Positions 32,238 through 52,225 of a stretch of DNA of 64,000 bases are shown here, piece by piece. How positions within the stretch are numbered: the stretch's first letter is position 1; the number at the start of each line of letters is the position of its first letter. The stretch covers positions 32,001-96,000 of the forward strand of contig JBCCHT010000031.1 in the NCBI GenBank assembly GCA_039028615.1, read 5' to 3'. Origin of the DNA: Myxococcota bacterium (lineage in GTDB: Bacteria > Myxococcota_A > Polyangia > Nannocystales > Nannocystaceae). The translations under genes were made by a program, and so were the position numbers. The notes under the pieces were generated by a model, which was not told the DNA's origin, ran no database searches, and was given only the letters and a program-made list of their open reading frames with translations.

Positions 32238-33698
32238 CTAGAAGGTCAGCAGCACCCGGATGTAGCCGTGCAGGTCGGTCACGTCGTCGACGACGAAGCG
32301 ACGACCCACGTTGTCGACCACGTCGCGGCGCAGCGGGTTGACCTCGACGGTGCCCTCGTCGACGCGCTGGGGATCGGTGCCCGCCGCCGAGCTGGCGCTC
32401 GCGTCACCGCGGTTGGCGAAGGTGACGAAGTGACGGGTGTCGGTCGAGAACTTGGCGCCCAGGTTGATCCGAGCGTTCTTGCCCAGATGCAGGTTGAGGC
32501 CGGTGTCGAAGCCGAAGGTGCCGTAGTCCTGGAGGTCGGTGACGCCGCTGAAGGCCGCGCACGAGCTGCCGCCCGCGCCGACGTAGCCGGAGTCCCCGGG
32601 GTTGTCGGCGGCGAAGGCCAGGGCCGCGTCACGGTCACACTGATCGGACTGGGTGGGATCTTCGGAGCCGACCAGCGAGGGGCTGTCGGCCAGAAGCTCC
32701 CAGATCTCGCTGTAGCCGCGGCCGCCGTAGTGAAGGATGGCGCTACCGGAGAGGTAGACGGCGACCTTCATGCTCTTGGCCTTGCGCTCCCACGGCACGA
32801 TCTCGGTACCGAAGGTCATGCCCGCCGTGGACTGGGGCAGCACGTCGCCCTGCGCGCCCAGGTTGGACAGGTTCTGGAACTGGCTGCCCGAGGCCACGAC
32901 CGACTGACGCCAGTACGCGGTGAAGAACGGGTCGAGGAAGCGATAGCGACGCGACAGCGCGGTCCAGGCCCCGAGCTCGTGCACCCGACGGCCGACCCGC
33001 GAGTTGCCCTGGGGCGAGTTGTTGATGATGTCGCGGCTGAAGGTCATCGCCCGGCCCACGGCGAAGCGGCCTTCGAGACCGATCAGCCAGTTGGGCATGT
33101 GCGAGCGGGTTCGTTGGCTCAAGATGCCGTACTTGAGGCCGACGTGAAGCTGGTCGAGACCGCGTCGCACCGGACCGCGGAAGATGAGCTCGGTGGTGGA
33201 CCCGGTGAACTGGCCGAAGGGGTTGGCCGAGTTGGTCGCGTCGAAGCCCGAATCCGGGATGATCTGGTCCCGAATCGTGGTGCTGTTGTCCTTGTCGACG
33301 CAGTTGGCCGCCGCTTGGTCGCCGAACACACAGTCGTCGGGGCGCTGGTCGAAGGAGTAGTCGCGGGTGTCGCTGAGGATGACCGGCAGCGTCACGTAGA
33401 CGGCCAGGTCGTGCCACAGGCCGATCTCCATGGTCGGATACAGCGTGTGGCGCTGCTGTCGGTACAGCAGGTCCTTGACCAAGCGATTCGAGTCGTCGCC
33501 CGGCCCGGCGTTCCACTCGCGCAGAATGGCGGCCCGCTTGAAGTTGTAGTCGTAGGCGACCCCGAAGTGGATGTCGAAGGGGTTGTCGTCCTCGAAGGAG
33601 GAGGCAACCCGCGTGACCTCCGCTGCCTGAGCGTTCTGGCTCAGGCCGGCAGTGGCGACCAGTCCGAGCAGGGGGAGGAAGCGCAAGAGATTCCGCAT
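32238..33698 (-). CDS. Probable outer-membrane beta-barrel protein; N-terminus resembles GltA/GltB gliding proteins
   Basis: Sec signal (AQA-AE), AEVTRVASSFEDDNPFD start, amphipathic beta strands and C-terminal YIRVLLTF. The Glt similarity is from memory only. Confidence 0.65.
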   Translation of the reverse strand: MRNLLRFLPLLGLVATAGLSQNAQAAEVTRVASSFEDDNPFDIHFGVAYDYNFKRAAILREWNAGPGDDSNRLVKDLLYRQQRHTLYPTMEIGLWHDLAVYVTLPVILSDTRDYSFDQRPDDCVFGDQAAANCVDKDNSTTIRDQIIPDSGFDATNSANPFGQFTGSTTELIFRGPVRRGLDQLHVGLKYGILSQRTRSHMPNWLIGLEGRFAVGRAMTFSRDIINNSPQGNSRVGRRVHELGAWTALSRRYRFLDPFFTAYWRQSVVASGSQFQNLSNLGAQGDVLPQSTAGMTFGTEIVPWERKAKSMKVAVYLSGSAILHYGGRGYSEIWELLADSPSLVGSEDPTQSDQCDRDAALAFAADNPGDSGYVGAGGSSCAAFSGVTDLQDYGTFGFDTGLNLHLGKNARINLGAKFSTDTRHFVTFANRGDASASSAAGTDPQRVDEGTVEVNPLRRDVVDNVGRRFVVDDVTDLHGYIRVLLTF

Positions 33699-33724
33699 GC
33701 GGTTGACCTTCGGCGGCCCGCGGC

Positions 33725-33754
33725 ACGCTACCAGCGCACGGTCGGTTCCGTCAA
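33725..33754 (-). promoter_or_regulatory. Putative sigma-70 promoter of the beta-barrel gene
   Basis: Minus strand TTGACG, 18 bp, TAGCGT with TG extension, 26 nt upstream of ATG 33698. Confidence 0.4.
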
Positions 33755-33981
33755 TATTTCCCGTAGGATGGCCTCGTGGCGGCCGATGGAGGCGTTCCGC
33801 CGCCAAGAGCGCCCTTCGGCGGCCGAGAAGGACACGTGGGCTGAACCGCCCCAGCTGCGTTGCTTGCGCTAGCGATGGCCCCCAGGACGGAAAGTCCCCG
33901 CGTCACGGACACAAAACGCCGCGATGCGGGGACATGGAGGGGCCGATCTCCGGCCGAGCGAGGGCTGGCCGGCCTCGCGGC

Positions 33982-37706: not shown

Positions 37707-37853
37707 GTTCGTCGGCCATCATACGCGGGCCCGTCGCGCCGCGAACCGGGTCTGTGCGTGCGCATCGGATGTGGCCGCAAACGTGCTCCTGCCCCGAGTT
37801 TTCGCGGGGACGGGGCGCGGGGGCGAAGGGGGATGCACGGTGGGCGCGGCGGC

Positions 37854-40800
37854 TCAGCCCCGGCTCCAGAACATCGAGTAGCGGCCGACCTTCGCCGCCC
37901 AGTCACACCAGGGGTCGATCGAGGCGGGGAGTTCGGGCTCGAGGCGTTGAAGGAGGTGGAGCAGGCGCTCGCGCTCGCGGGGAAGCGTCGCGCCGTGCAA
38001 GGGATCGCCGTCGGTCGATTGCGACGCGGCGGTGGGGTCGAGCAGGGCCACCGCTTCGGCCCATGTGGTTGGGGAGGGGCCCTTGGGCAAGTGGGCGTGG
38101 GCGAGGATCTGGAGGAAGCGGGCGCCGAGGCGGGGGAAGCCGACGTTGATCGCCAGCAGGACCGCGACCGCTCGATGTTCGCCGTTGCGATCGTCGAGGC
38201 GGAATGCCGCGTAGCGCTCGTCGGCGACCTCGCTGCGGAGTAGGCGATAGATGTTGATGAAGCGCTTGATGACCCGCGGGGTATTGAGGAAGGGGCGCAG
38301 GTGCGTGGTCATGAAGCGGCGCTCCCAAGGGTCGACGACGAAGCGGGTCAGCTTGGTCGGGGCGCGCCGGGTCTCGGGGGCTGGGGTCGCGACGAGGGCG
38401 TCGATGTCCACGCGGGCGTTGGAGTTCGCGTGGGCTCCCGCGGCGGCGAAGGCGGTGGAGGAGACCACGCCGCGGGTGGGCTCGGGCTCGGGTTCTTCGG
38501 GCTCGGGCTGTTCTTCGGTCTCGGCTTCTGTCTCTTCTTCGGGTTCGGGCTCAGGCTGCTCTTCCGCGGGGGCCGTCTCTTCTCCTGTGGGGGCCGTCTC
38601 GTCTGCCTCGGCCTCCGGTTCGGGCTCGGGCGTTTCGTGGCCGTGCCCCGCGTTCGAGCGTTCGGACTCGTCGGCGGGAGGGCTCGCCAGCTCACCGGGT
38701 ACCTTGATGTGGGCCTCGACGAGCTCGGCGAATCCTTCGTCCTCGATGCGCGGCAGGGTGAACGGGATCTGGAAGATCTTCTGCAGGTAGTCCTCGGCCG
38801 TCGCGGCGCCTTCGCCATCCGACGGAGCTTCGAGCAGGTGCTCGTAGCCTTGCTCGAGTGAGCGCGACAGCCAGCGCGCGTCGACCCCCACGACGACCAC
38901 GAACAGATCGTCGATCGCGAGCAGCAGGTGCACCGCCTGCAGGACCTCGACCACGCGATCGGCCGGGCAGCGGTCGAGGTCGTCGATATAGAGCACGATG
39001 CGATCGACCGACTCGTCGGGGTGGTCGTCTCGCCAGCCCTGAAGGGCCGCTTTGAGTTCGCTGAGGTCGCGACGCACCAGCGAGATGACGCCCTCGGACT
39101 GGCGGTAGAGGCTGTCTTCGGAGGTCTTTTCTTCGAGCAGATCGTAGACGACGCGGTCGGCCCTCAGCTCCTCGAGCTGTTCCTTCTTCTCGAGCAGTTG
39201 CTGTTCGAACAGGTCGCGGGCGATTTCTGCTTCCGCGACCTTCTCTTCGGCCTTCTCGTAGCGCTCGATCGCCGACTTCTGTTCGTCGGTGAGTTCTTCG
39301 AGGATCTCGTTGCGGAGCTCTGCGCCCTCCTTGCGGATCCCATCCAGGTACTGGACCACCGAAGAAACCCGCTTCAGACCGGCTCGCGATTTACCCACGA
39401 CGGCGGTGAAGAGCACGATGAACTGGGACATCACCGTGCCGACGGCGGAGATGTCGAACTCCTGTTCCAGCAGCCAGGGCAGGCCGACCACGGCGCCCAG
39501 CAGGAAGAAACCGATGATCCACTCGCCCCAGCTGTCGGGGGCCAGGGAGGCGACCAGCGAGCGGGTGGTGCCGACGGTGGTGTTCAGCTCTTCGCGCAGG
39601 CGCTTGGCGTCTTCGGGGGCGGCCAGCAGCGCGCCGAGCTGGTCCTCTTCGAGGTTGAGTTGTTTGAGGCCCTTTTCGATGAAGTCGCGCTTCAGCCCGA
39701 GTCGTTCGGCCGCGGCCTCCCAGACCTTCTTGTTGGTGAGTACGCCGCGGAGAGTATTCAGCTCGTCGCGGCGCGCTTGTTCGAGGCGCTCGATTTCCTT
39801 GCCTGCGTCCTCGAATTCCTTTTCTGCGGCTTTGAACTCCGCTTCGACCTTCTTGCGTTCTTCCTTGGACTCGCGCAGCTCCGCTCGTAGTCGCCTTCGG
39901 ATTTCCGCGGGGTCGTTGTTCACCCCCACGTTCAGGCTCTCGGCCAGGCCCTCGAAGATCCGCCCCGCGAGGCTGATCCACAGGGTGGTGTCCATGTAGT
40001 GCCAGGCGTTGAACTCGATCTGGCACACGCGGAGGCGGTCGGCGCCCGTGCGCTTTTGTTCTTCGGCGCGGATGGCCTCCTGCACGAGGCCCATGAAGTG
40101 GGACTTGCCCGCGCCCCAGTCACCGAACAGGCCGATGGCGAAGGGGGCCTTCATCTGGTCGGACGCGATGCCGCGGGCGAAGCGTTCCGCCTGGGCTTTG
40201 CGGTCGAGGTGGTCGTCGCCCGTCGCGGTGTCGGTCAGCCAGAGGCTGGTGTCGGTGGAAGGGCGGCGGCCGTCCACCGCGTCGAGGACTTGGCGGAGGA
40301 CGGTGATGTGGGCTTCGAGGTCGCCGGGGCGCAGGGCGTCGTAGTCGGCCTTGACGACGCCGGGCAGGGGGCGCTCGTGCCATTGCTCGCCGATCTCGGC
40401 GAAGAGGTCGGCGGTGGGGCCCTCGGGGGAGGATGGGAGGGCGATGATGGGCTTGAGTCGGCGTCGGGTCTCGCTCGCGAGTAGGTCCATCGGTTGGGCG
40501 TCGAGCACGACGACGGCGGCGGCTCGGTCGGCGTAGTCGATGCGCCAGTCTCGGGATTGCTGGGGGACGACGGGGGCGCGTTGGAGGAAGGGGGTGATCG
40601 TTTGGCCGTCGTGGACGATGACGATGTGGGGGTAGCGGCCGTTGTCGATCGAGTGCTGGACGAAGGCCTTGGCGGCGAACTCGTCTGCGCCTGCGCAGCC
40701 GCCGAGGATGAGGCCTACGGGGGACTCGGTTTCGGCGAGGGCTTTGCCTACGGCTTCGGCCCACTGTTGGGTGGTTTCGTCGGCGGCGGTGGTTCCGACG

Positions 40801-41864
40801 ACGGCGACGAAGCGGGGTGGTGGTGTCGGAGCGCGGGCCGTGGGGATGCCCGAGAGGATGCGGTGGTCCGACAGCAGCACCTGCGACGACACGACACGCT
40901 GCTGCCCATTGGGTCCGGGAGTCACGAGGCCTACGATCTCGCCTTGGACGAGTACGGGGCTTCCAATGGGGATGGATTCGCGGCCCGACTTCCCAGAGCC
41001 GCGCTCGAACTCGAGGAAAGACCCCGTGGCGCTCGTAAGCAGCGTCCAGCGCGATCGCCTTGGGCCCGGCAACGTGGCGATTCGGGATTCCACGGGCTCG
41101 AGCCGTTGCGTCGCAAAAGGCGGGCGGTCGGCGTCGGTTCTCTCGGCCAGCACGAGCGTCGCGTAGCCGTAGCCGTCGTCGGTGAGTCCAACCGAGGCCC
41201 GAATGCTCGTACCGTCGGGAAACATCAAGGCGGTTTCCGTGAGGTCCTGGACCGCCGCGGCGGAGGTGAGTGCCAACTCCGGGCCGACGATGAACGCAAG
41301 TGCGTCCTGCCCCTGAAGTTCGACCACGAACTCGTACTTGGACGTTTCGAGCGATGGCGGGGCCGAGCCCTTCGTTGCGGCTCGCTGGGTGTTCTCGAAC
41401 AGTCCCCACTCCTCCAGCGAGTCGACCACTCCACCGTCTTCCTGACTGTCGACCCACTCCACCCAGCGGAGTATTCCGAACTCCCGAACTGTTGCGCGCA
41501 AGGATTCGAGGGCAGGTCCAAGCAAGATCGGAACGAGTCGATCCGAGCTGCTCGGTCTTCCCGACGAGTTCAGTGCGTCGAGGACTTCAAGAAGGGCGTG
41601 CGGGCGTTTGCCCGCTGGTGCATCAACCAGTACGAGAACCGTCTCGCTGGAGTCGAGATACTGGTGAACAATCCGAGGTTTGGCCCCCGGAACATAGTCG
41701 TCGATGAACGTGGACCTATCCCGAGAATGGAGTGCGCTCTGCAGCGCTTCCGCTCGCTCCCGTTGCTTGTATGGAAACAAGACATAGAAGTCGATGTCGA
41801 ACTTTAGCGTGGCGGGCTGCACGGGGCCTCGGTCGCGGGGCAGAGGACGGCGTCGCGGGGGCAC
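37854..41864 (-). CDS. KAP-family P-loop NTPase with N-terminal TIR-like, degenerate trypsin-like and SLOG-like domains
   Basis: KAP motifs: AIGLFGDWGAGKS, FNAWHY, two TM helices, IVLYIDDLDRC, DYLQKIFQIPFTLP, TPRVIKRFINIY. N-terminal domains recognised by pattern (see findings). Start 41864 or 41822. Confidence 0.88.
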   Translation of the reverse strand: MPPRRRPLPRDRGPVQPATLKFDIDFYVLFPYKQRERAEALQSALHSRDRSTFIDDYVPGAKPRIVHQYLDSSETVLVLVDAPAGKRPHALLEVLDALNSSGRPSSSDRLVPILLGPALESLRATVREFGILRWVEWVDSQEDGGVVDSLEEWGLFENTQRAATKGSAPPSLETSKYEFVVELQGQDALAFIVGPELALTSAAAVQDLTETALMFPDGTSIRASVGLTDDGYGYATLVLAERTDADRPPFATQRLEPVESRIATLPGPRRSRWTLLTSATGSFLEFERGSGKSGRESIPIGSPVLVQGEIVGLVTPGPNGQQRVVSSQVLLSDHRILSGIPTARAPTPPPRFVAVVGTTAADETTQQWAEAVGKALAETESPVGLILGGCAGADEFAAKAFVQHSIDNGRYPHIVIVHDGQTITPFLQRAPVVPQQSRDWRIDYADRAAAVVVLDAQPMDLLASETRRRLKPIIALPSSPEGPTADLFAEIGEQWHERPLPGVVKADYDALRPGDLEAHITVLRQVLDAVDGRRPSTDTSLWLTDTATGDDHLDRKAQAERFARGIASDQMKAPFAIGLFGDWGAGKSHFMGLVQEAIRAEEQKRTGADRLRVCQIEFNAWHYMDTTLWISLAGRIFEGLAESLNVGVNNDPAEIRRRLRAELRESKEERKKVEAEFKAAEKEFEDAGKEIERLEQARRDELNTLRGVLTNKKVWEAAAERLGLKRDFIEKGLKQLNLEEDQLGALLAAPEDAKRLREELNTTVGTTRSLVASLAPDSWGEWIIGFFLLGAVVGLPWLLEQEFDISAVGTVMSQFIVLFTAVVGKSRAGLKRVSSVVQYLDGIRKEGAELRNEILEELTDEQKSAIERYEKAEEKVAEAEIARDLFEQQLLEKKEQLEELRADRVVYDLLEEKTSEDSLYRQSEGVISLVRRDLSELKAALQGWRDDHPDESVDRIVLYIDDLDRCPADRVVEVLQAVHLLLAIDDLFVVVVGVDARWLSRSLEQGYEHLLEAPSDGEGAATAEDYLQKIFQIPFTLPRIEDEGFAELVEAHIKVPGELASPPADESERSNAGHGHETPEPEPEAEADETAPTGEETAPAEEQPEPEPEEETEAETEEQPEPEEPEPEPTRGVVSSTAFAAAGAHANSNARVDIDALVATPAPETRRAPTKLTRFVVDPWERRFMTTHLRPFLNTPRVIKRFINIYRLLRSEVADERYAAFRLDDRNGEHRAVAVLLAINVGFPRLGARFLQILAHAHLPKGPSPTTWAEAVALLDPTAASQSTDGDPLHGATLPRERERLLHLLQRLEPELPASIDPWCDWAAKVGRYSMFWSRG

Positions 41865-42130
41865 GACACCTCAGCCCTACCGTCTCACGTCCACTTCGAG
41901 CTGACCACCGGACTCGACCTCCGTCCCGACACCTCCCGTCGCCATCGAGCCACGACTGCCTTCCACCCAGCCGAAGCCTCCCGGCCGTCGAACCACCGTT
42001 CAGCCCCACCCACCGAACGCCGACCCCACAACCCAGCTCCGAACGTCAGTCCGCCGCACCCCACACCACGTCCCGCGTCCGGGCGGATCCACCCGCCGGA
42101 GGCCGCAGGGCCTTGTGGTATCACCGGGCG

Positions 42131-43822
42131 ATGCGTGGACGATGGCGCCTGGCGTGCGGGTTGGCTTTTGTTGCGGCGGTCGGTTGTGCCACGACCATGG
42201 ACAAGGCCGAGCAGGCGCATAAACGCAAGGCGTACGAGGAAGCGGAGCAGCTGTACCTCGAGGCGGCGAAGGACGAGGAATCCGCGGAGGCAGCCAAGGA
42301 AGGCCTGGCCACGTTGCACGCCGACATCGCAGCCGAGGCGGAAGCCGAAGACGCCGCCAAAGCGGAGGCGCAGTACCGCGAGGCGCTCGAGATCCAGCCC
42401 GGCCACGACGAAGCGCTCACCGGGCTGGTGCGATTGCTCCGCGCCCAAAAACGACTCGACGACGCGAGCAAAGCCATCGAGGAGGCATCGGCTTCGGGAC
42501 AATGCGGTGCCTCGTGCAACCGACTGGCGCTCATCGTGCTGCTCGAGCAGGGCGATCGAGCCGCAGCCGCCAACAAATGGGACGAGGCACTCGCGGCCTA
42601 CACGGCAGCCCAACAGATCCGCGAGCAGGTGACGGTCGCGGTCGCGATCGCAGCCACGTCGCTCACCGCGGGCAAGCTGCCCGAGACCGAAGCCGCGCTG
42701 ACCCAAGCCCACCCGTCGATGCTGAAGGCCGACGCCTCGAGCATCCAACGCTTCCTCAGCACCCATCGCGCGCTCGTGCACGCGATGTTGTCCGCCCAAG
42801 ACATCGAGGGCGCAGACCGGGTGCGAGTGATGCGACTCGCGGACGAGCCGGCCGAGCGCCAGACCGAGCTGGCCTTGCTGGTGGCCAAGGCGGTGCTCGA
42901 CGGTGGCGACCGCGTCGGTGCGCTGACCCGCTACGAGAACATCCTGGGCGGCAGCGGAGAGCAAGCCCCGACCGACGCGCAGCGACCCGCGATCGAGGAA
43001 AAGACCGCCTTCATCTACGCCGCGCTCGGAACCGAAGACCTGCACGCGGGTCGCCCCGAAGAAGCGGACCGTCGGTTTTCGCGGGCCATCGAGCTCCAAC
43101 CCGAGGATTGGTCGCTCAAGCTCCAGCGCATCCTGGCGTTGTCGGGCACCATCGGCGCCGAGCCGGCGTTGGCGAGCCTGTCCAAGGTCCCCGCCACCGC
43201 GGGGCTGGCCCACGCCAAGGCGATCTTGCTGGCGCTGCAGGTCCGCGAGCAGCTCGATCGAGGCGAACGCGAAGCCGCGGCCGAGACGCTCGAGAAGGCC
43301 AAGCGGGCGCACTCCGATCTCCCCGAGGTACGGCTGGCGGGCGCGATGATGCTGGCCCACACGCCATCGGACGAACTCAGCGGCGGCGAGCGTCGGGCGC
43401 TGCTCGGGCGACAGTCGCTGGTCACCTATCCGGGCGAGGTCTTTCGCTTCGGCGAGGCCCTGGCCGAGCTCGACTGGGTCCACGGGGCACTGAGCGAGCG
43501 CGACACCACCTATCCCTTCACCGCACCCTGGATGCCGACCTGGATGGCGGACCTCGAGGGCAAGCTGAAGACGGCCTATCCCATGCCCGTGGTCTTCCGC
43601 GAAGACCCAGAGCCGGTCATCGTGTTCCACAACAGCGGCGGGCCGATGATCGAGATTTCCGTGAAGGGGCCCGACGGGTTTCGCGAGGAGGTCGGGGTCG
43701 TGCCGGGCACGGACAAGTCGATCACCATCCCGGACTCAGGCCTGCTGCGGCTGAAGATCGGCCGCCAGTCGAAGGTGTTCTACGCCGAGGGCTACGCCCA
43801 GGTCACGCTGACCGTGCCGTGA
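42131..43822 (+). CDS. TPR-repeat lipoprotein
   Basis: Lipobox AAVGC, TPR-like helices (YREALEIQPGH, FSRAIELQPED) and a small beta-rich C-terminus. Confidence 0.8.
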   Translation: MRGRWRLACGLAFVAAVGCATTMDKAEQAHKRKAYEEAEQLYLEAAKDEESAEAAKEGLATLHADIAAEAEAEDAAKAEAQYREALEIQPGHDEALTGLVRLLRAQKRLDDASKAIEEASASGQCGASCNRLALIVLLEQGDRAAAANKWDEALAAYTAAQQIREQVTVAVAIAATSLTAGKLPETEAALTQAHPSMLKADASSIQRFLSTHRALVHAMLSAQDIEGADRVRVMRLADEPAERQTELALLVAKAVLDGGDRVGALTRYENILGGSGEQAPTDAQRPAIEEKTAFIYAALGTEDLHAGRPEEADRRFSRAIELQPEDWSLKLQRILALSGTIGAEPALASLSKVPATAGLAHAKAILLALQVREQLDRGEREAAAETLEKAKRAHSDLPEVRLAGAMMLAHTPSDELSGGERRALLGRQSLVTYPGEVFRFGEALAELDWVHGALSERDTTYPFTAPWMPTWMADLEGKLKTAYPMPVVFREDPEPVIVFHNSGGPMIEISVKGPDGFREEVGVVPGTDKSITIPDSGLLRLKIGRQSKVFYAEGYAQVTLTVP

Positions 43823-43859
43823 TGCACCGCCCCGAGCGAAGCGGTGCTACGATCGCTTC

Positions 43860-44171
43860 GTGAAGGCGGCACTGTTCACGAGCGGGCTCATCGTCGGACT
43901 CGTCGGGCTCTCCTGTGCCGAGCCCGAGGTCGACATGGGGGAGCCGTTGCCCGAGATCGGCGAGGCCTGCAACGAGCAGGGGGAGTGCGCGATGGATCTG
44001 CGCTGCATCCCCGTCAGCGGCACGACCAACGAGGCTTACTGTCGCCAGCCCTGCGAGACGGACACCATCATCCCGGGCAACCCGTGGGTGGTCGAGCCGA
44101 GCCCCGAGTGCCCCGATCCCGACGCGGCCTATTGCTTCAACGGCGGCTGCCAGCAGGCCATCGACGATTGA
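43860..44171 (+). CDS. Small Cys-rich lipoprotein
   Basis: Lipobox VGLSC followed by eight Cys; coding-like codon usage. Confidence 0.65.
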   Translation: MKAALFTSGLIVGLVGLSCAEPEVDMGEPLPEIGEACNEQGECAMDLRCIPVSGTTNEAYCRQPCETDTIIPGNPWVVEPSPECPDPDAAYCFNGGCQQAIDD

Positions 44172-44199
44172 ACGAGGCGAGTTCGCACCCGCCTCGTTC
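44170..44199. terminator. Hairpin between convergent genes (possible terminator)
   Basis: GAACGAGGCG...CGCCTCGTTC 10-bp perfect stem; no clear U-tract. Confidence 0.45.
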
Positions 44200-44214
44200 G
44201 GGCACCGCGAAGTA

Positions 44215-46143
44215 CTAGATGCCTTCGCAGATGATCCGCGTGTCGGGCAGCACGTCGAGGTGCTGAACCGCCAGGTCGGGCCGCGACACCCGGCTGAGCG
44301 CATTCAGGGCCGACGCAATGGCGCCCTCCTGCCACCCGGGCAACGAGGAAACCTGATCGCCGACGATGAAGAACACGGGATCGGAGAGATTGCCCTCGGC
44401 ATCGTGAACCCCCGAGCCCTGCGCGATGGTGTTGAAGTGCTCGACGGGGGAGTCGACCACGTGCCACTGCGCCCAGCCGCCCTTGATGTAGGCCATGTTC
44501 TGCCAGGCGATCGCGAGCCCGTCGGTGAGCCCATCGCCGAAGGCCTCACCGAAGCGCTTGGCGCCCTCGCGGGCCTTGTGGAGGCGGGTTCCGACGTCGA
44601 GCTTGCCCCACTCGTTGGCGACTTCGGAAAAGTTGTAGGCGCCCGTCAGCACGCCGAGTTTGCCGTGGTAGTCGCACGACGGGTACCAGATCTGCGCGAT
44701 CTCGTCGTCGGTCCACGAGATGCCGCCGAAGATCGGGACCACGCCGATTTCCGAGTCGGGCACGCCGAGCAGGTCTTCGCCGCTGCTGGAGTCGGGCTTG
44801 GCCACGATGGTCGAGCCTTGCCACGAGGTGCGGGCCGCTTGCCACCCGACCTTGGTGGTGTCGGCCAGAAACCGCGGCTGATAGTCGCTGCCTTCCTCGG
44901 GCGGCGGCGGGTTGAACTGCGCCTCGTAGACGGCACGCAGGCTGGCCTTGAAGGGGTCGGACAAGCCACTGCTTTCGCCTCCGCCCTGGAGGCGCTCGGA
45001 CAGAATGCGGCTGAGGAAGGGCATGGCCAGGTTGCAGAAGCAGTAGTCGGCCCGATACTCGACGAGCTCTTCGGTGCCCAGCTGCTGCACCTTCACCACG
45101 AACTCGCGCGCGTCGGGGTCCCAGTCGATGTGCTTGACCGGACTGTTGAGGTGAATCGTGCCGCCGAGGGCCGAGACCTTCTGGGCGAACGCATGCTGCA
45201 CGCGGTCCATGCCGCCCACGGGCTGGAACAGGGTGGGCTGCCAGAGGAAATCGACGGGCTGATAAAAGCGGGTGATTCTCCAAAACTCGGACTCGAGCAG
45301 CTCGTCGAAGGGCAGGGGCGAAGCGGTTTCGCCCGCGGCGACCCCCGGTAGCACGTCGTAGCCCGAGCGGGTCCGTCCGTTCTCGAGACCGGACTGCCCC
45401 GCGGTGGGCGAAAACTCGCCGTCCTCCGTCAGCTCACCGAACGAGACCATCAGCTCTTGCAGTTGCTCGGTGCGTTTTTCGAGCAGCGCCTTGCGTGCCT
45501 CGTCGTCGTCGGGCAGCGGTAGATCCGACTGCTCGAGCAAGGTCTCGGCATTGTTGAACACCAGCTCCGCGAGCCAGCCGCGGGTGTTGTGCTCGAGGCG
45601 GCGATACACGACCGGCTTCGACTCGAAGGGCCCGCCCTCCATCTGCACGAGGTTGGAGCCCGAGTTCATGACGTAGACCTCCACGTCCACGCCGAACTGC
45701 TCGAGGTACGAGAGCAACCGCTTGTGGCTGGAGGGGATGCGCCCGGGGCCCGCGTTGAGGTAGGGCTCGGCATCGCCTAGGGGCCGCTTGAAACGGACGA
45801 CCTGCGGCTCACCCGGCTTGGAGTCGAACAGCTCGCTGTCTGCGTCCTCGATCAACGTGTCACCCGTACGCAGGCTGAGGCAGCGCCCGCCCGTGCGATG
45901 CCGGGCTTCGAGCACGGTCACTTCCATACCGCTATCTTGTTCGAGTAGCTCGTACGCCGTGGTCAGGCCGCCGACGCCGGAGCCGATGACGATCGCTCGC
46001 TTGCCGTGGTGCTGCTTCGGCTTGAGCTTGACCGCGCCGGGAGTGACCGATGCTTGTTGAGCGGTCGCCTGACGGAGCGCAGCCCATGCGCGGGCCGAAG
46101 GATTCTTGCGAAGGAAGTTTGCTCGGCTCTGATGTTTCGCCAC
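44215..46143 (-). CDS. Flavin-dependent amine/L-amino-acid oxidase family protein
   Basis: IVIGSGVGGLTTAYEL FAD motif, LEAR.RTGGR, NAGPGRIP, FQPVGGMD, GDQ.S.LPGWQEGAI.SA. Confidence 0.9.
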   Translation of the reverse strand: MAKHQSRANFLRKNPSARAWAALRQATAQQASVTPGAVKLKPKQHHGKRAIVIGSGVGGLTTAYELLEQDSGMEVTVLEARHRTGGRCLSLRTGDTLIEDADSELFDSKPGEPQVVRFKRPLGDAEPYLNAGPGRIPSSHKRLLSYLEQFGVDVEVYVMNSGSNLVQMEGGPFESKPVVYRRLEHNTRGWLAELVFNNAETLLEQSDLPLPDDDEARKALLEKRTEQLQELMVSFGELTEDGEFSPTAGQSGLENGRTRSGYDVLPGVAAGETASPLPFDELLESEFWRITRFYQPVDFLWQPTLFQPVGGMDRVQHAFAQKVSALGGTIHLNSPVKHIDWDPDAREFVVKVQQLGTEELVEYRADYCFCNLAMPFLSRILSERLQGGGESSGLSDPFKASLRAVYEAQFNPPPPEEGSDYQPRFLADTTKVGWQAARTSWQGSTIVAKPDSSSGEDLLGVPDSEIGVVPIFGGISWTDDEIAQIWYPSCDYHGKLGVLTGAYNFSEVANEWGKLDVGTRLHKAREGAKRFGEAFGDGLTDGLAIAWQNMAYIKGGWAQWHVVDSPVEHFNTIAQGSGVHDAEGNLSDPVFFIVGDQVSSLPGWQEGAIASALNALSRVSRPDLAVQHLDVLPDTRIICEGI

Positions 46144-46297
46144 GGTGGAGGTCCTATCGATGCGAACGATAGTGCGTCGTCGCGATCGGTCGGAGTTCCA
46201 ATTCGGTGGTCGTCGAGCGTGCGCGAGAACGCGTTGGTCGGCCCGCGTTGGGCCGGGTAGGGACGAACGGACACGGGACACTTCGGGGGCGGACGCA

Positions 46298-46313
46298 TGG
46301 CACGAAGGGCGCA
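46298..46313 (+). promoter_or_regulatory. Possible sigma-54 promoter for the hybrid kinase
   Basis: TGGCACG-AAGG-GCGCA: perfect -24 element, GG-N10-GC spacing, imperfect -12. Confidence 0.35.
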
Positions 46314-46451
46314 AGCGCGGGTGTGTGGCCCGTGAACGGCGTACGTTCTCCGATCGTGCACGAGCCGCCGATCGATGGTTCCATCAACGGGCATGGTTCG
46401 CAGGCGGGTCCGGCTCGACGCCGATGGCTTCATGCCCGACAAGAGGGCCGG

Positions 46452-48995
46452 ATGACGCCCGATCAGAGCCAAGACTTCAAGGTCTTCGCCTGGCGCACGC
46501 TCGATAGCGTGATGCCGCTGGTGATGATCCCGGCGTTTGTCTTGGTGGTGCTCACCGCCGACAGTTGGATCCTGCCCGCGGTGTTGTCCGCCGGGTTCTT
46601 CGGCGCCAACGTGAGCCTGAGTGTGGTCATCACGGCCATGCTGAAGCAGAAGCGACGCCCCGCGCCGTTCCTGGTCGGTAGTGCGCACGCCGTGATCTCG
46701 CTGGGGTTTCTGCCGCTGCTCATCTGGTCGGGGAACCCGAGCTATCCGATCTGGATCGTCGCGCTGCCCACCCTGTTTGCGATCCCGTTCTTCTACGGCT
46801 CGGGGACCTCGCTGCTCTACGACGGGCTCATCATGGCCAGTTGTTTGGTGGCGGTGTACTTGCGCAGCGGTTGGGGGCAGCCGCTGGCCTACGCCGCGAT
46901 CACCATGACGTCGGCGATCACGCTGGCCTACCCGGTCTTCGTGGCGATGCGGCAGAAGTACAACTCGCTCGAGAAGGCCTCCCACGAGATCAACGAGGCC
47001 AATACCCGGCTCGAGGTGGCCCGCGAGGAGGCGGTCAGCGCTCGCGAGGCAGCCGAGGCGGGGAACGTGGCCAAGTCCGAGTTCCTCGCCAACATGAGCC
47101 ACGAAATCCGCACGCCGATGAACGCGGTGATCGGCATGACCGGCTTGTTGCTCGACACTCAGCTCAGCGACGAGCAGCGGGATTTCGCGGGGACCATTCG
47201 CGACAGCGGAGACGCCCTGCTGTCGATCATCAACGACATCCTCGACTACTCCAAGCTCGAGGCCAACCAGGTCCAGCTCGAAGATCAGCCCTACACCATT
47301 CGCGAGTGCCTCGAGTCTTCGCTCGATCTGGTGGCCGCCAAGGCAGCGTACAAGCACCTGGAGCTGGGCTACCTGATGGGCAAGCGGGTGCCGGGCGCAG
47401 TCCGGGGCGACGTCACTCGGGTCCGTCAGGTCATCACCAACTTGCTCAGCAACGCGGTCAAGTTCACCGAGCGCGGGGGCGTGTGCGTCACCGTCGAAGC
47501 AGCACCGGCCAAGTCGGCCGACGCCGACGACAACGACTGGTGCGAGCTTCAGATCAGCGTCCGCGACACGGGCATGGGCATCCCCGAGGATCGGCAGCAG
47601 GGGCTCTTCGATCCCTTCAGCCAGGTCGATGCGTCGACGACCCGTCGCTTCGGCGGTACGGGGCTCGGCCTGGCCATTTGTCGGCGGCTCGTGCAGTCCA
47701 TGGACGGGCGGATCTGGGTCGAGAGCGAGCCCGATCGCGGCTCGACCTTCCACTTCACCATTCGCACCAAGAAGGCCGGCTACGAGGTCCCGACCTTCTT
47801 GCAGCCCGACCAGCCGCATCTGCGGGGCAAGCACCTGCTCGTCGTCGACGACAACTCCATCAACCGCGAGATCCTGTGTCGCCGCGCGCTCAGCTGGGGC
47901 ATGAAGGTCACCGAGAGCTCGTCCGGGCCCGAGGCGGTCGACCTCATCGAGCAGGGCACGGGCCCCTTCGACATCGCGATCCTCGACATGCACATGCCGA
48001 CCATGGACGGGGTCGAGCTGGCCAAGAAGATCCGGCACTGGGACGAGCGGCTGCCCATGGTCATGCTGACCTCGCTGGCGTGGAAGCCCTCGGACCCCGA
48101 TCTGGCGCTCTTCGCCGCGTTCCTCACCAAGCCGATCAAGGCCTCGCCGCTCTACGACAAGCTCAGCGAGGCCCTGGCCGAGGCGGGCCGCGGCACCCGG
48201 CGTCGCCGCGACGAGTCCGCCTACGACCCCGAGCTCGGCCAGCGAGAGCCGCGTCGCATCTTGCTGGCCGAGGACCACGTCATCAACCAGCGGCTCGCGG
48301 TGGCCGTGCTCAAGCGCCTGGGCTACCGACCCGATGTCGTCAGCAATGGCTGGGAGGTGCTCGATGCCCTGCGGCGTCAGCCCTACGACATCGTGCTGAT
48401 GGACGTGCAGATGCCGGACATGGATGGGCTCGAGGCCACCGCTCGGATCCGGTCCGACTTCGCGCCCGATGTGCAGCCGCACATCGTGGCCGTCACCGCT
48501 CACGCCACCCGGCAGGATCGCGATCGCTGCCTGGCCGCGGGCATGGACGACCACCTGGGCAAGCCCTTCCAGCTCGAGGAACTGCTCGCCATCTTGAAGC
48601 GCAGCCCGGCTCGGCTCGGGGGAGCGAAGCCAGAGTCCGACGCGGCCGAGCCCTCCGTCGATCCCAAGGCCATCGAACAACTCCGCGCGCTGATGGGGGA
48701 CGAAGAGGGGGGCCTGGCGCCGCTGGTCGACGAGTTCCTGGCCGAGACCGCGGTCATCCTCGAGTGGGCCGACGAAGCGCTCGGCAGCGGCAAGGTGTCC
48801 GAGGCCGGCAGCGCGGCGCACAAGCTCATCGCCTCGGCTCGCAGCTTCGGCGCGGCCCCGCTGGCTCGGCTCGCGGTCCAGCTGCAAGAGGTTGCGGAGG
48901 CCGGAGAACACGACGACGCGGTGCGGCTGCTGACCGATACTCGGGAGGAGTTTCGGCGGGTCGAGGTCCGGCTGGCGGAGTACCAAGGGCCCTGA
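46452..48995 (+). CDS. Hybrid sensor histidine kinase (TM, HisKA, HATPase, 2x REC, Hpt)
   Basis: [31 protein letters not shown], two receiver domains (LDMHMP, MDVQMP) and Hpt AHKLIASA. Confidence 0.95.
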
Positions 48996-49117
48996 CGGCC
49001 GCCGCTTCGCCGGGCCGTGCCGCGTACCTACACGCCAAAAACCCGGTGAAGGGGCCGTGACGCGCGAAGTCTGCCGCGGGTTTGGCGGGGAGACCGGGGC
49101 CGTGGCATGCTCTATCC

Positions 49118-49384
49118 GTGGCAGCGATCATCGAGGACGAGAAGCGGGCGCAACGAAAGGCGCGAGCGATCGCGTCCGACATCTACCTTTACAACAAGGC
49201 GAAGATCGAAGAGGCGCTCCAAAAAGACAGCTTCTTCGAGGACATGTCGGAGTTCATCACCGAGGGGCGTGACCTGTTCCGCTCGAGCGTGTCGCCGGCC
49301 TTGTTCAAGAAGAACTTCTACGACCGAGCCATCGTCGATCGCGTGATCAAGCCGATGGCCGCCCTCAAGTCGTCGATCTGGTAG
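49118..49384 (+). CDS. romX: RomX-like polarity protein (MglA GEF subunit)
   Basis: ARAIASDIYLYN..KI..., EGR.LF.S.VS, NFYDRAI.D, KS.IW closely match recalled Myxococcus RomX; upstream of an RluA-family gene. Confidence 0.8.
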   Translation: MAAIIEDEKRAQRKARAIASDIYLYNKAKIEEALQKDSFFEDMSEFITEGRDLFRSSVSPALFKKNFYDRAIVDRVIKPMAALKSSIW

Positions 49385-49404
49385 GTCCCTCCGACGACGG
49401 TGCG

Positions 49405-51211: not shown

Positions 51212-52225
51212 ATGAAGGCCGCGGCTCGCCTCCGTCTCGTCTCCGTGCTCATCGTCGGCCTGCTCGGCAGCGCCTGCGACACGACCGAAGAGCCCGAGGT
51301 GGAGAGCGCCGACCTGCGCTCCGAAGAACTCGACGCCCGCTGCGAGTTCCTCGTGCGCTGCGGCTTCATGCCCGACCGAGACACCTGCCTCGCCTCCGAG
51401 GAGCCCGACGCCGGTCTCGTGCAGGCGGTCGGGGCTACCAGCTTCGACCGCGTCGGCTACGACACCGAGGCCGCCGCGGTGTGGCTGGACACCCTGCGGA
51501 ACCTGAGCTGCGAGGGCACCATCGCCAACACGCGGGCCTTGGCCGAGGCGCGAGCGGGTGTGTTCGCCGGTCGCATCGAGACCAACGGCGCCTGCTTTTC
51601 CGACGAGGAGTGTGCGGGCGAGGCGATCTGCGAGCGCAGTGCGTGCCCCGGCAACCAGGTGTGCTGCACGGGCGAGTGCCTGCCTCTGCGCACCCTGACG
51701 GTGGGAGAGACATGCCCCTTGCCGCAGGCCGACGTGCGCATGCGGGCGTTCTGCGAGGACACGGCCTACTGCCAAGTCCCGCCCGACGATGGCAGCGAGG
51801 AGCCGCCCACCGAGGGCACCTGCGTGGCTCGGGTGGACAACGGCCTGCCCTGCGACGCGCTCGACGGGTGCCTCGACGGGCAGCGCTGCGACCTGGGAGG
51901 CTCGGGCAACTGCTATCGCCTCTCCGCGTCGGGGGAGATGTGCAACCCGGACCTGCAGCGCGGGTCGTGCTTGTCGCTCAACGAGGTCTGCTCGGGCGAG
52001 TGTGTGGCTGCGCCCGGCCCCGGGCAGGCCTGCGTGCAGGGGCAGTGCGCCGGCTATGCGGTGTGCGTGGAGGACAGCTGCGTGGCGCTGCTGCGGCAGG
52101 GCGAGGCGTGTGACGGGTCGGTGCCGTGCCTGGGCGACCTGAATTGTCGCGACGACGTATGTACGGCGGAGGACATCGTGCTCGTGTGTGTCGACGGGGC
52201 TCCGCCGCCTCCGCCCATGGAGTAG
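51212..52225 (+). CDS. Cys-rich repeat lipoprotein
   Basis: Lipobox LGSAC and many G..C...C...C modules. Confidence 0.75.
   Translation: MKAAARLRLVSVLIVGLLGSACDTTEEPEVESADLRSEELDARCEFLVRCGFMPDRDTCLASEEPDAGLVQAVGATSFDRVGYDTEAAAVWLDTLRNLSCEGTIANTRALAEARAGVFAGRIETNGACFSDEECAGEAICERSACPGNQVCCTGECLPLRTLTVGETCPLPQADVRMRAFCEDTAYCQVPPDDGSEEPPTEGTCVARVDNGLPCDALDGCLDGQRCDLGGSGNCYRLSASGEMCNPDLQRGSCLSLNEVCSGECVAAPGPGQACVQGQCAGYAVCVEDSCVALLRQGEACDGSVPCLGDLNCRDDVCTAEDIVLVCVDGAPPPPPME

Follow-up and report, generated by a model that had tools for sequence, protein, structure and literature searches.

Why would one protein carry a TIR domain, an inactive trypsin fold, a SLOG domain and a membrane-inserted nucleoside triphosphatase (NTPase) of the KAP family, and what might it do for its host? 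The question is raised by a gene (37854..41864, minus strand) in a 64,000-nucleotide stretch from a Myxococcota bacterium of the family Nannocystaceae (assembly GCA_039028615.1, contig JBCCHT010000031.1, positions 32,001 to 96,000). We call the whole of this stretch the window, and all coordinates refer to it. An initial annotation, made from the sequence alone, had described the gene as a single gene, standing by itself, in which a KAP NTPase with two transmembrane helices and coiled coils between its Walker motifs follows a TIR-like module with a retained glutamate, a "pseudo" trypsin-like module, and a SLOG-like module; it knew of no described system with this architecture and suggested a role in defense. 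Our analysis confirms the anatomy: the gene encodes a multidomain protein made of a TIR domain, a dead trypsin fold, a SLOG domain, and a membrane KAP NTPase.

Four modules in one chain

The C-terminal NTPase is the clearest part of the protein. It matches the Pfam family KAP_NTPase (PF07693) with E = 6.1e-26 (91.8 bits, with a cut-off of 20), in two pieces, an N-terminal part that holds Walker A and a second part at residues 952-1211. Both Walker motifs named in the initial annotation are present, with Walker A at the position it gave, and within Walker A, G581, G584, G586, K587, and S588 are invariant in an alignment of five KAP sequences. The two motifs are 370 residues apart. We called membrane helices from hydropathy alone (Kyte-Doolittle, 19-residue windows), and between the Walker motifs there are just two strongly hydrophobic windows (above 1.6), which form a hairpin. 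Transmembrane helices inserted within the NTPase domain are reportedly a defining feature of the KAP family since its description in 2004, and the hairpin (~780-825) does lie between residues 581 and 959. A third hydrophobic stretch (971-999) probably belongs to the NTPase core past Walker B and was not counted as a membrane helix. On either side of the hairpin, a composition scan found charged, helix-prone segments that resemble coiled coils. Farther on, an acidic linker differs in length and sequence between relatives, and the helical C-terminus that follows it is strongly conserved in the KAP alignment, ending in VGRYSMFW. Because the hairpin within the NTPase is the sole membrane element, the NTPase parts before and after it should lie on one side of the membrane, together with all of the N-terminus. 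That side, which holds all of the recognized domains, should be the cytoplasm; no signal peptide is evident.

The N-terminal modules were harder to recognize. A phmmer search of the first 545 residues against the PDB gave chance-level matches only (RdgC, an antibody Fv). An AlphaFold2 model of residues 15-545 (from a 7-sequence alignment) has three compact domains and a mean predicted local distance difference test (pLDDT) score of 78.9. The initial annotation had named modeling with AlphaFold and Foldseek as one way to check its assignments, and the three segments do model as TIR, trypsin, and SLOG folds.

The middle domain is a double beta-barrel of the trypsin fold. Its best Foldseek match is MamO (5hm9, E = 6.8e-9), with HtrA and DegS also found (E ~1e-8), and VIA returns the trypsin fold with a Z score of 17.8 (root-mean-square deviation (rmsd) 2.6, 164 residues aligned). 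The Pfam family Trypsin_2 is sub-threshold on the target (E = 0.008) and passes its cut-off in the relative P0007, at 32.9 bits. As the columns of the catalytic triad (His/Asp/Ser) read Ala/Gly/Ile in the target, its middle domain is a pseudo-peptidase. Three relatives likewise lack a full triad (Ser/Gly/Ser in P0003, Asn/Gly/Leu in P0004, and Thr/Gly/Leu in P0005), and P0006 and P0007 have it in full. The Asp and Ser columns of P0007 align, with a weak E of 0.055, to the "GDSGRP" of the alphavirus capsid protease. MamO itself is catalytically inactive, and the target resembles it and other repurposed trypsin folds in keeping the fold without a working triad; the inactivated protease paralogues of the scabies mite are among the VIA matches as well. 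These likenesses are at the level of the fold only, with about 20% identity.

The SLOG assignment rests on structure and on the relatives. In VIA, the modeled domain matches TM1055 (1rcu; Z 16.8, rmsd 2.5, 154 residues aligned), a Moco carrier protein (2iz5, Z 16.0), TT1887 (1weh, Z 15.5), and DprA (3maj, Z 15.5). The Pfam family LDcluster4 (PF18306) does not reach its cut-off of 26.3 bits on the target (19.8 bits, E = 6.6e-4) and exceeds it in three relatives (27.3 bits in P0004, 29.5 in P0006, and 29.4 in L113). Pfam DprA also falls below its cut-off on the SLOG piece (E = 0.002), and a profile of the family's SLOG domains finds LOG-family chains with E = 0.004-0.05. The glycine-rich loop GGxxGxD aligns to the "tGGgpGvme" loop of TT1465, and SLOG W96 and W151 are invariant in all seven sequences, which are 22-54% identical. 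Look-alikes of the domain in the ESM Atlas scored 0.75-0.77, below a meaningful level, and LDcluster4 was found on 11-13% of the members in two of the four clusters.

LOG enzymes carry the catalytic motif PGGxGTxxE. In our SLOG alignment, the "vvvLDGg" strand is not followed by a conserved Gly-Thr..Glu (the target reads LD-AQPMDLL), and we rejected a LOG-type phosphoribohydrolase because there is no conserved Thr..Glu beyond the second glycine loop. The domain is probably not a LOG-type enzyme, and the loss of this catalytic stretch favors a ligand-binding role over an enzymatic one.

The excised TIR piece matches Pfam TIR_2 with E = 4.7e-4 and 21.1 bits, under the cut-off of 28; scores in the relatives are 25.0 bits in P0003 (also below) and 38.2, 50.5, and 62 bits in P0004, P0005, and P0008 (above). 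A profile built from the four members that have the full set of modules matches solved TIR structures: AtTIR (3jrn) with E = 3.7e-7, RUN1 with 1.1e-5, PdTIR with 3.4e-4, and SARM1 with 6e-4. These profile matches argue decisively for homology to TIR domains. Because trypsin and SLOG matches took up the VIA result for the 531-residue model, we also folded the TIR domain by itself. Foldseek gave nine matches to this model at E <= 0.001 (E = 1.2e-4 to 7.6e-4), every one of them a TIR domain, and the top matches are BtpA/TcpB, PdTIR, MAL, and SARM1 (E = 1e-4 to 8e-3). In the profile alignment, Glu93 of the target pairs with the Glu in WCLDELVKI of RUN1, and a second RUN1 entry (7s2z) has Ala in its place. 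We take this RUN1 residue to be the catalytic E100 and the Ala entry to be its mutant.

Thus, each of the modules described in the initial annotation is present, including the lost triad of the trypsin-like module, the retained glutamate of the TIR, and the two helices accompanied by coiled-coil-like segments. Its reading frame exists as well, with 1336 codons, but translation probably begins later, at a GTG at 41822, giving a product of 1322 residues. This start is likelier than 41864 because the initial Met of the ortholog P0003 aligns to residue 15; GAGG lies 4 nt upstream of either GTG. We number residues in the 1336-residue frame (Glu93 would be E79 if counted from the GTG at 41822). P0003 (1312 residues) is the only close relative; identity is 58% from end to end and 43% when the first 545 residues are taken alone. 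The G+C content falls to 0.63-0.65 within the gene, as compared to 0.68-0.70 in its surroundings.

The protein collection's own gene call for the target (P0002, 1202 residues) begins at a GTG at residue 135. It omits 41462-41864 of the minus strand, and hence all of the TIR domain, and the annotation precomputed for it is PF07693 alone. As this call is 134 codons late and hides the TIR, such architectures are under-counted in surveys that rely on annotation.

Table 1. Features of the gene and its insertion, in window coordinates, with residues in the 1336-residue frame.
Feature	Coordinates	Strand	Residues	Remarks
Whole open reading frame	37854..41864	-	1336 in all	Unbroken; coordinates take in the stop codon (37854-37856)
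TIR domain	41481..41795	-	~24-128	Four parallel strands alternating with helices in the model
Putative catalytic Glu codon	41586..41588	-	93	Glu invariant in 4/4 TIR-bearing members
Trypsin-fold (PA-clan-like) domain	40836..41348	-	~173-343	Without catalytic triad
SLOG domain with C-terminal helical extension	40275..40817	-	~350-530	LDcluster4-like
SLOG glycine-rich loop GGCAGAD	40683..40703	-		Family motif GGxxGxD; Gly-Gly, next Gly, and Asp invariant in 7/7
KAP-family P-loop NTPase module	37857..40229	-	~546-1336	With membrane hairpin, acidic linker, and helical C-terminus
Walker A, GDWGAGKS	40101-40124	-	581-588
Charged, helix-prone, coiled-coil-like segment before the hairpin	39579..39920	-	649-762	Rich in E/K/R/Q/A/L
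Membrane hairpin	39390..39527	-	~780-800 and ~805-825	Two hydrophobic helices with a short acidic loop between
Charged, helix-prone, coiled-coil-like segment after the hairpin	39117..39323	-	848-916	Rich in E/K/R/Q/A/L
Walker B region, YIDDLDRC	38967-38990	-	959-966	Invariant in 5/5 sequences of the KAP alignment
Acidic Pro/Glu-rich low-complexity linker	38460..38684	-		28 D/E in 75 residues
11.7-kb block between the histidine-kinase and RluD-like genes	37707..49404			Insertion relative to three same-genus genomes

Relatives and genomic setting

The first 545 residues have few relatives. A search against 1.84 billion representative proteins returned five at E <= 1e-3 (P0004 to P0008), and more members of the family came from a scan of 401 genomes of the phylum with a SLOG profile, a metagenome scan, and a reference-genome scan. 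When genome contigs were scanned with the N-terminal 545 residues as a single sequence, there was no confirmed relative. A word-indexed search of longer proteins with the SLOG alignment gave three proteins and missed known relatives, and so says little about how widespread the family is.

The full set of modules (TIR, dead trypsin fold, SLOG, and KAP) is very rare: it occurs in four proteins, namely the target, P0003, P0004, and P0005 (locus L114). Other relatives vary ahead of the KAP domain. P0006, P0007 (a partial sequence), and L113 have a trypsin domain with the His/Asp/Ser triad, followed by SLOG and KAP, and lack the TIR; P0009 has the same arrangement with a trypsin domain that appears degenerate (its triad was read by eye). 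P0010 and L033/L116 have a small alpha/beta domain ahead of SLOG and KAP, and L035 has SLOG and KAP. P0008 has CHAT, TIR, and SLOG domains without a KAP domain. From these classes, we conclude that SLOG plus KAP is the conserved core and that the N-terminus is modular, which is what would be expected of an effector or adaptor position ahead of an NTPase switch. A full triad is absent from all four TIR-bearing members and is kept in three of the four trypsin-bearing members without a TIR. This hints at effector swapping, with the triad lost where a TIR is present, although it comes from a few related sequences and is not a statistic.

The wider KAP clade is common. We confirmed 311 metagenome stretches and another 113 in reference genomes of many phyla, at 27-35% identity to the target over residues ~545-1333. 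From 80 metagenome loci that were kept, we scanned 54 N-terminal regions with Pfam. (We left out loci in which Walker A was not matched or was preceded by less than ~150 residues, as well as loci truncated at the 5' end, although two of the truncated ones were kept.) TIR_2 was found in 11 of the 54, seven of them above the cut-off; the other domains were PG_binding_1 (2), WD40/beta-propeller (2), Clp_N (2), HEAT (1), DUF4062 (1), and DUF1488 (1), and 33 regions had no domain recognizable by Pfam. Hidden Markov models (HMMs) of our family found SLOG in two of these 54 regions, and neither Pfam nor the family HMMs found a trypsin-like module in any of them. Between the TIR and the KAP of the distant relatives, the ~250-450 residues had no match to Pfam or to the family HMMs. 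Thus, fusion of TIR to KAP is recurrent, and the four-module form is rare.

Several relatives are of interest in their own right. P0008 (727 residues, from a 2.4-kb metagenome contig) looks like a one-chain analogue of TIR-to-caspase signaling: its CHAT domain is caspase-like, and its SLOG domain is among the closest to the target's. L037 and L082 are KAP relatives that begin with PG_binding_1, which is odd ahead of an NTPase that should be cytoplasmic and suggests a different topology for those members. In L036 (8294-15276), a TIR-KAP gene is directly followed by genes for a phage-type integrase and a cytidine-deaminase-domain protein, with a DUF5906 gene also at the locus; the TIR-KAP gene sits at the edge of an apparent integrated element. 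L085 (7709-16888) has tandem KAP genes with a di-haem cytochrome c peroxidase gene between them and RHS-repeat proteins on both sides; the first of these KAP genes encodes TIR, KAP, and TPR domains. Finally, the taxonomic labels of some records from metagenome-assembled genomes look unreliable (L115 and L116 as Rickettsiales, L117 as Gammaproteobacteria, and L120 as Enterobacteriaceae).

In the host, whose genome is 12.27 Mb, 96.7% complete, and carries three KAP genes, the target is an accessory gene that stands alone within an insertion specific to the strain. The initial annotation, too, had the gene standing alone. The N-terminal query was found in none of 60 relatives of the host (5 from its genus, 31 from its family, and 24 from its class, with completeness of 54-100%). 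The gene lies in an 11.7-kb block, together with genes for a TPR lipoprotein, a flavin amine oxidase, and a hybrid histidine kinase. The downstream GAF histidine kinase has orthologs in all five same-genus genomes (77-82% identity), and we compared the gap between it and the RluD-like gene in four of these (G002 to G005; the contig of G001 is too short). The two genes are ~385-470 bp apart in G003, G004, and G005, and G002 has a different insert of 6.2 kb at the same spot, which encodes FG-GAP and TSP_C proteins. This gap is thus a variable spot in the genus, of ~0.4 kb in three genomes, 6.2 kb in a fourth, and 11.7 kb in the host (loci L014, L015, L016, and L032). None of the five same-genus genomes gave a match at E <= 1e-30 to the flavin amine oxidase (44215-46314, minus strand, 699 residues). 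For the TPR lipoprotein, there is a homolog at 55% in another part of G003.

The neighbors of the target are a two-component pair, the TPR lipoprotein, the amine oxidase, and the hybrid kinase, with sigma-54 regulators nearby. PADLOC matches among them are generic (the sigma-54 AAA proteins to RtcR models, and the N-terminus of the flavin oxidase to a desaturase model). Around eight relatives, the neighbors vary by locus and are mostly housekeeping, metabolic, or regulatory genes; the few hints of mobile elements or conflict are those in L036 (integrase and deaminase) and L085 (RHS proteins and a tandem KAP). As no partner gene is conserved across loci, the unit is a single gene. Elsewhere in the window, a 522-residue protein (32238-33806, minus strand) and a Cys-rich putative lipoprotein of 337 residues (51212-52225, plus strand) have no Pfam match at E <= 0.001.

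Comparison with described systems

What we take from the papers cited below holds for the portions of their text that were accessible. The literature that we searched on KAP, TIR, SLOG, and conflict systems does not describe this architecture, in agreement with the initial annotation, although older surveys of SLOG/TIR and KAP proteins may list such fusions. In particular, "KAP" is absent from the main text of a systematic survey of Thoeris (10.64898/2025.12.03.692087), and in the main text of a study of NTP-dependent conflict systems (PMC7159879), it appears solely within authors' names in the references. As far as its accessible text goes, another study mentions an effector that is a KAP-related NTPase, and notes that TIR, DrHyd, and SLOG domains each serve in several roles (10.64898/2026.10.19.760177).

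The nearest PADLOC models are QatA of QatABCD (E = 2.9e-21) and PifA of the F plasmid (E = 5.4e-11), two ATPases of phage defense, which belong to the same NTPase family (PF07693) and in which a long insert likewise separates Walker A from Walker B. Both matches are partial, with the KAP part alone aligned. We dropped an identification as QatA because the NCBIfam equivalog scores 88.5 bits, far below its cut-off of 600, and no neighbors like qatB, qatC, or qatD were found. Unlike PifA, which is described as having no membrane helices in the accessible text of PMC13001434, the target has a membrane hairpin. In this respect, it resembles Tmn, a membrane P-loop NTPase encoded by one gene, which also carries two helices inside its NTPase domain and whose defense function is coupled to ATP turnover (PMC13001434). 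The initial annotation had listed TmnA as a KAP NTPase. This 2026 preprint, in the portion accessible, disagrees, placing Tmn in a YobI family that is phylogenetically distinct from KAP and has no recognizable accessory domains, whereas the target matches the KAP profile and its accessory domains number three. There was no Tmn model among the 13 PADLOC families that matched at E <= 1 (the presence of a Tmn model in the library was not confirmed).

The order of modules also has parallels. A TIR or peptidase-type module ahead of a P-loop NTPase switch is found in plant TNL proteins, in bacterial TIR-STAND proteins, and in the NTP-dependent conflict systems of multicellular bacteria, which include TIR and SLOG domains (PMC7159879, in its accessible part). 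In those conflict systems, the effector position is variable and can hold an inactive trypsin domain, as in the target (same source). Unlike them and TIR-STAND proteins, the target has a membrane-inserted NTPase of the KAP type rather than a STAND, vWA-MoxR, or GTPase module. A further difference is that Pfam detected no array of repeats at the target's C-terminus.

How the protein might act

The anatomy and the accessory status of the gene are observed, and from here on we infer each functional step, defense included. Tentatively, and with somewhat less than even confidence, we propose that the target is a single-gene conflict protein that is switched by its NTPase, with an NAD+-cleaving TIR as its output and the SLOG domain as a ligand sensor. 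The conflict would most likely be anti-phage or abortive infection. At rest, the protein would be anchored in the inner membrane, and its N-terminal modules would be kept from acting. A trigger might be recognized by a non-catalytic surface, either the dead trypsin-fold domain or the conserved helical C-terminus, or both. The KAP domain, on binding or hydrolyzing a nucleotide, would then drive a conformational change or oligomerization that brings TIR domains together, and the assembled TIRs would cleave NAD+ via Glu93, causing depletion of NAD+ or the formation of ADP-ribose-derived products, or both. The SLOG domain would act as a non-catalytic sensor of a nucleotide ligand that gates the NTPase, and the membrane hairpin of the NTPase may contribute an effect at the membrane. 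In favor of this proposal are the domain identities, with the protease triad lost and a SLOG domain that is probably no LOG-type enzyme, the modular N-terminus, the accessory status of the gene and the small size of its family, and the nearness of the KAP part to the QatA and PifA models.

Several observations weigh against this proposal. First, the target's TIR is degenerate, at 21 bits as compared to the cut-off of 28, and 4-5 positions before the Glu, where an aromatic residue is common in TIRs, it has His (and P0003 has Leu), as judged by eye. Because of this replacement, the putative NADase activity is plausible but not assured. Second, the modeling is based on shallow alignments of 4 to 7 sequences. 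The TIR modeled alone (4 sequences) has a pLDDT of 65, as compared to 77-90 within the model of residues 15-545, and its best VIA match, the RPS4 TIR (Z 9.2, rmsd 3.2, 104 residues aligned), is tied to within 1 Z with domains of thiamine enzymes and others of flavodoxin-like fold. With its low score and the replaced aromatic, the TIR of the target could therefore be a scaffold instead of an enzyme. Third, the second glycine loop of the SLOG domain is eroded in the target and in P0003, with one Gly lost and the stretch shortened. Fourth, the setting does not single out the gene as a defense gene. The initial annotation had pointed to a defense-island context as something to look for, and none was found around the target or the eight relatives examined (L033, L036, L047, L059, L085, L098, L113, and L114), nor is there a specific PADLOC match among the target's neighbors. 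At the 11.7-kb insertion, we saw no bounding repeats, integrase, tRNA, or mobility gene; a search for repeats at its edges gave short, low-identity direct and inverted pairs, as expected by chance.

A different logic, which we consider unlikely but the best of the alternatives, is a Thoeris-like relay in one chain: on sensing infection, the TIR would turn NAD+ into a messenger derived from ADP-ribose, a SLOG domain in its own or a neighboring copy would bind it, and KAP, thereby switched on, would act as the true effector through perturbation of the membrane or of ions, with the signal spreading among membrane-bound copies. In type I Thoeris, a TIR with a catalytic Glu is paired with a SLOG domain as signal maker and reader, and the SLOG domain binds the TIR product, according to the accessible parts of a survey (10.64898/2025.12.03.692087) and of a paper that summarizes the Thoeris types (10.1101/2024.10.24.620036). 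The target has both in one chain. Furthermore, P0008, which is one of five relatives in 1.84 billion proteins, has the same SLOG subtype next to a TIR and to a domain of protease type, in the absence of KAP, and PifA and Tmn are examples of membrane P-loop NTPases as defense effectors (PMC13001434, accessible text).

Yet, the associations of TIR with KAP and of SLOG with KAP are independent of each other, which weakens the relay as the main logic. SLOG and KAP occur without a TIR in P0006, P0007, P0009, P0010, L033, L035, and L113, and there is no TIR_2 match on the contig of the SLOG-KAP gene in either G442 (P0009) or G140 (P0010). Conversely, the 11 distant relatives among the 54 with a TIR fused to KAP have no detectable SLOG domain. 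There is also little obvious gain in making and reading a messenger on one polypeptide. Nor did we assign the target to Thoeris itself: it is one gene instead of the two of type I (ThsB and ThsA), no ThsA or ThsB model was among the PADLOC matches at E <= 1, and Pfam found neither SIR2 nor Macro, nor another of the effector domains described for Thoeris, with a membrane KAP NTPase as the output module instead. We placed the SLOG domain as LDcluster4-like or LOG/DprA-like from scores and fold.

The relay could be extended to a full circuit, in which the dead protease captures a phage or other foreign protein and thereby licenses the adjacent TIR to make the messenger from NAD+, the SLOG domains of neighboring copies read it, and KAP shuts down the cell at the level of the membrane or of ions. 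We regard this as improbable, if a little less so than the weakest reading below. If true, the protein would amount to a "Thoeris in one chain" that amplifies its own signal, and P0008 would be this circuit with an output of the caspase-like kind.

It is similarly doubtful that the protein serves signaling at the membrane or cell fate in a large, socially living bacterium rather than defense against phage, for example in kin discrimination, in developmental programmed cell death, or in stress signaling. Its domains would then be put to self-directed regulation. The host has a large genome (12.3 Mb), the gene lies among two-component and sigma-54 regulators, no defense neighbors were found, and some family members are in records labeled Myxococcota or Polyangiaceae. 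Also, the accessible text of PMC7159879 ties NTPase-centered proteins with TIR or peptidase domains to multicellular bacteria. However, the gene is sporadic even within the genus, it lies in a strain-specific insertion, and synteny is not conserved among its relatives, all of which suits a conflict gene more than a core function in development. There is overlap between these readings, as death-type effectors serve both.

Lastly, the N-terminus could have decayed to a structural role, with its TIR, trypsin fold, and SLOG domain forming a non-catalytic, non-signaling scaffold for KAP oligomerization or docking, as might be suspected from the wholly lost triad, the sub-threshold Pfam scores of both TIR and SLOG, the eroded SLOG loop in the target and P0003, and the missing aromatic before the TIR Glu; this seems quite improbable given that this Glu is invariant in the four TIR-bearing members, that the GGxxGxD loop, W96, and W151 are invariant in seven sequences despite their low identity, that the first 545 residues are still 43% identical to those of P0003 with no disruption of the frame, and that the models are well ordered (mean pLDDT 78.9).

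Returning to the NTPase-switched conflict protein that we tentatively prefer, what is new is a KAP NTPase protein of the conflict type with a rare head of TIR, pseudo-protease, and SLOG modules. Even if it proved to be inert or to have a housekeeping role, it would still be a documented case of a rare multidomain KAP NTPase at a strain-variable locus. To our knowledge, TIR signaling and SLOG sensing in bacteria have so far been known as two-gene Thoeris systems, and membrane P-loop NTPases such as PifA and Tmn as separate single-gene defenses. The target and its three relatives with the full architecture join the TIR/SLOG theme of Thoeris to that of the membrane NTPases. The family amounts to a natural series of domain swaps around the SLOG-KAP core, with a TIR and a dead protease in some members, a live protease in place of the TIR in others, and CHAT, TIR, and SLOG without KAP in P0008. 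A series of this kind lends itself well to the questions of whether the SLOG domain reads a product of the TIR, what KAP does at the membrane, and what the inactive proteases contribute.

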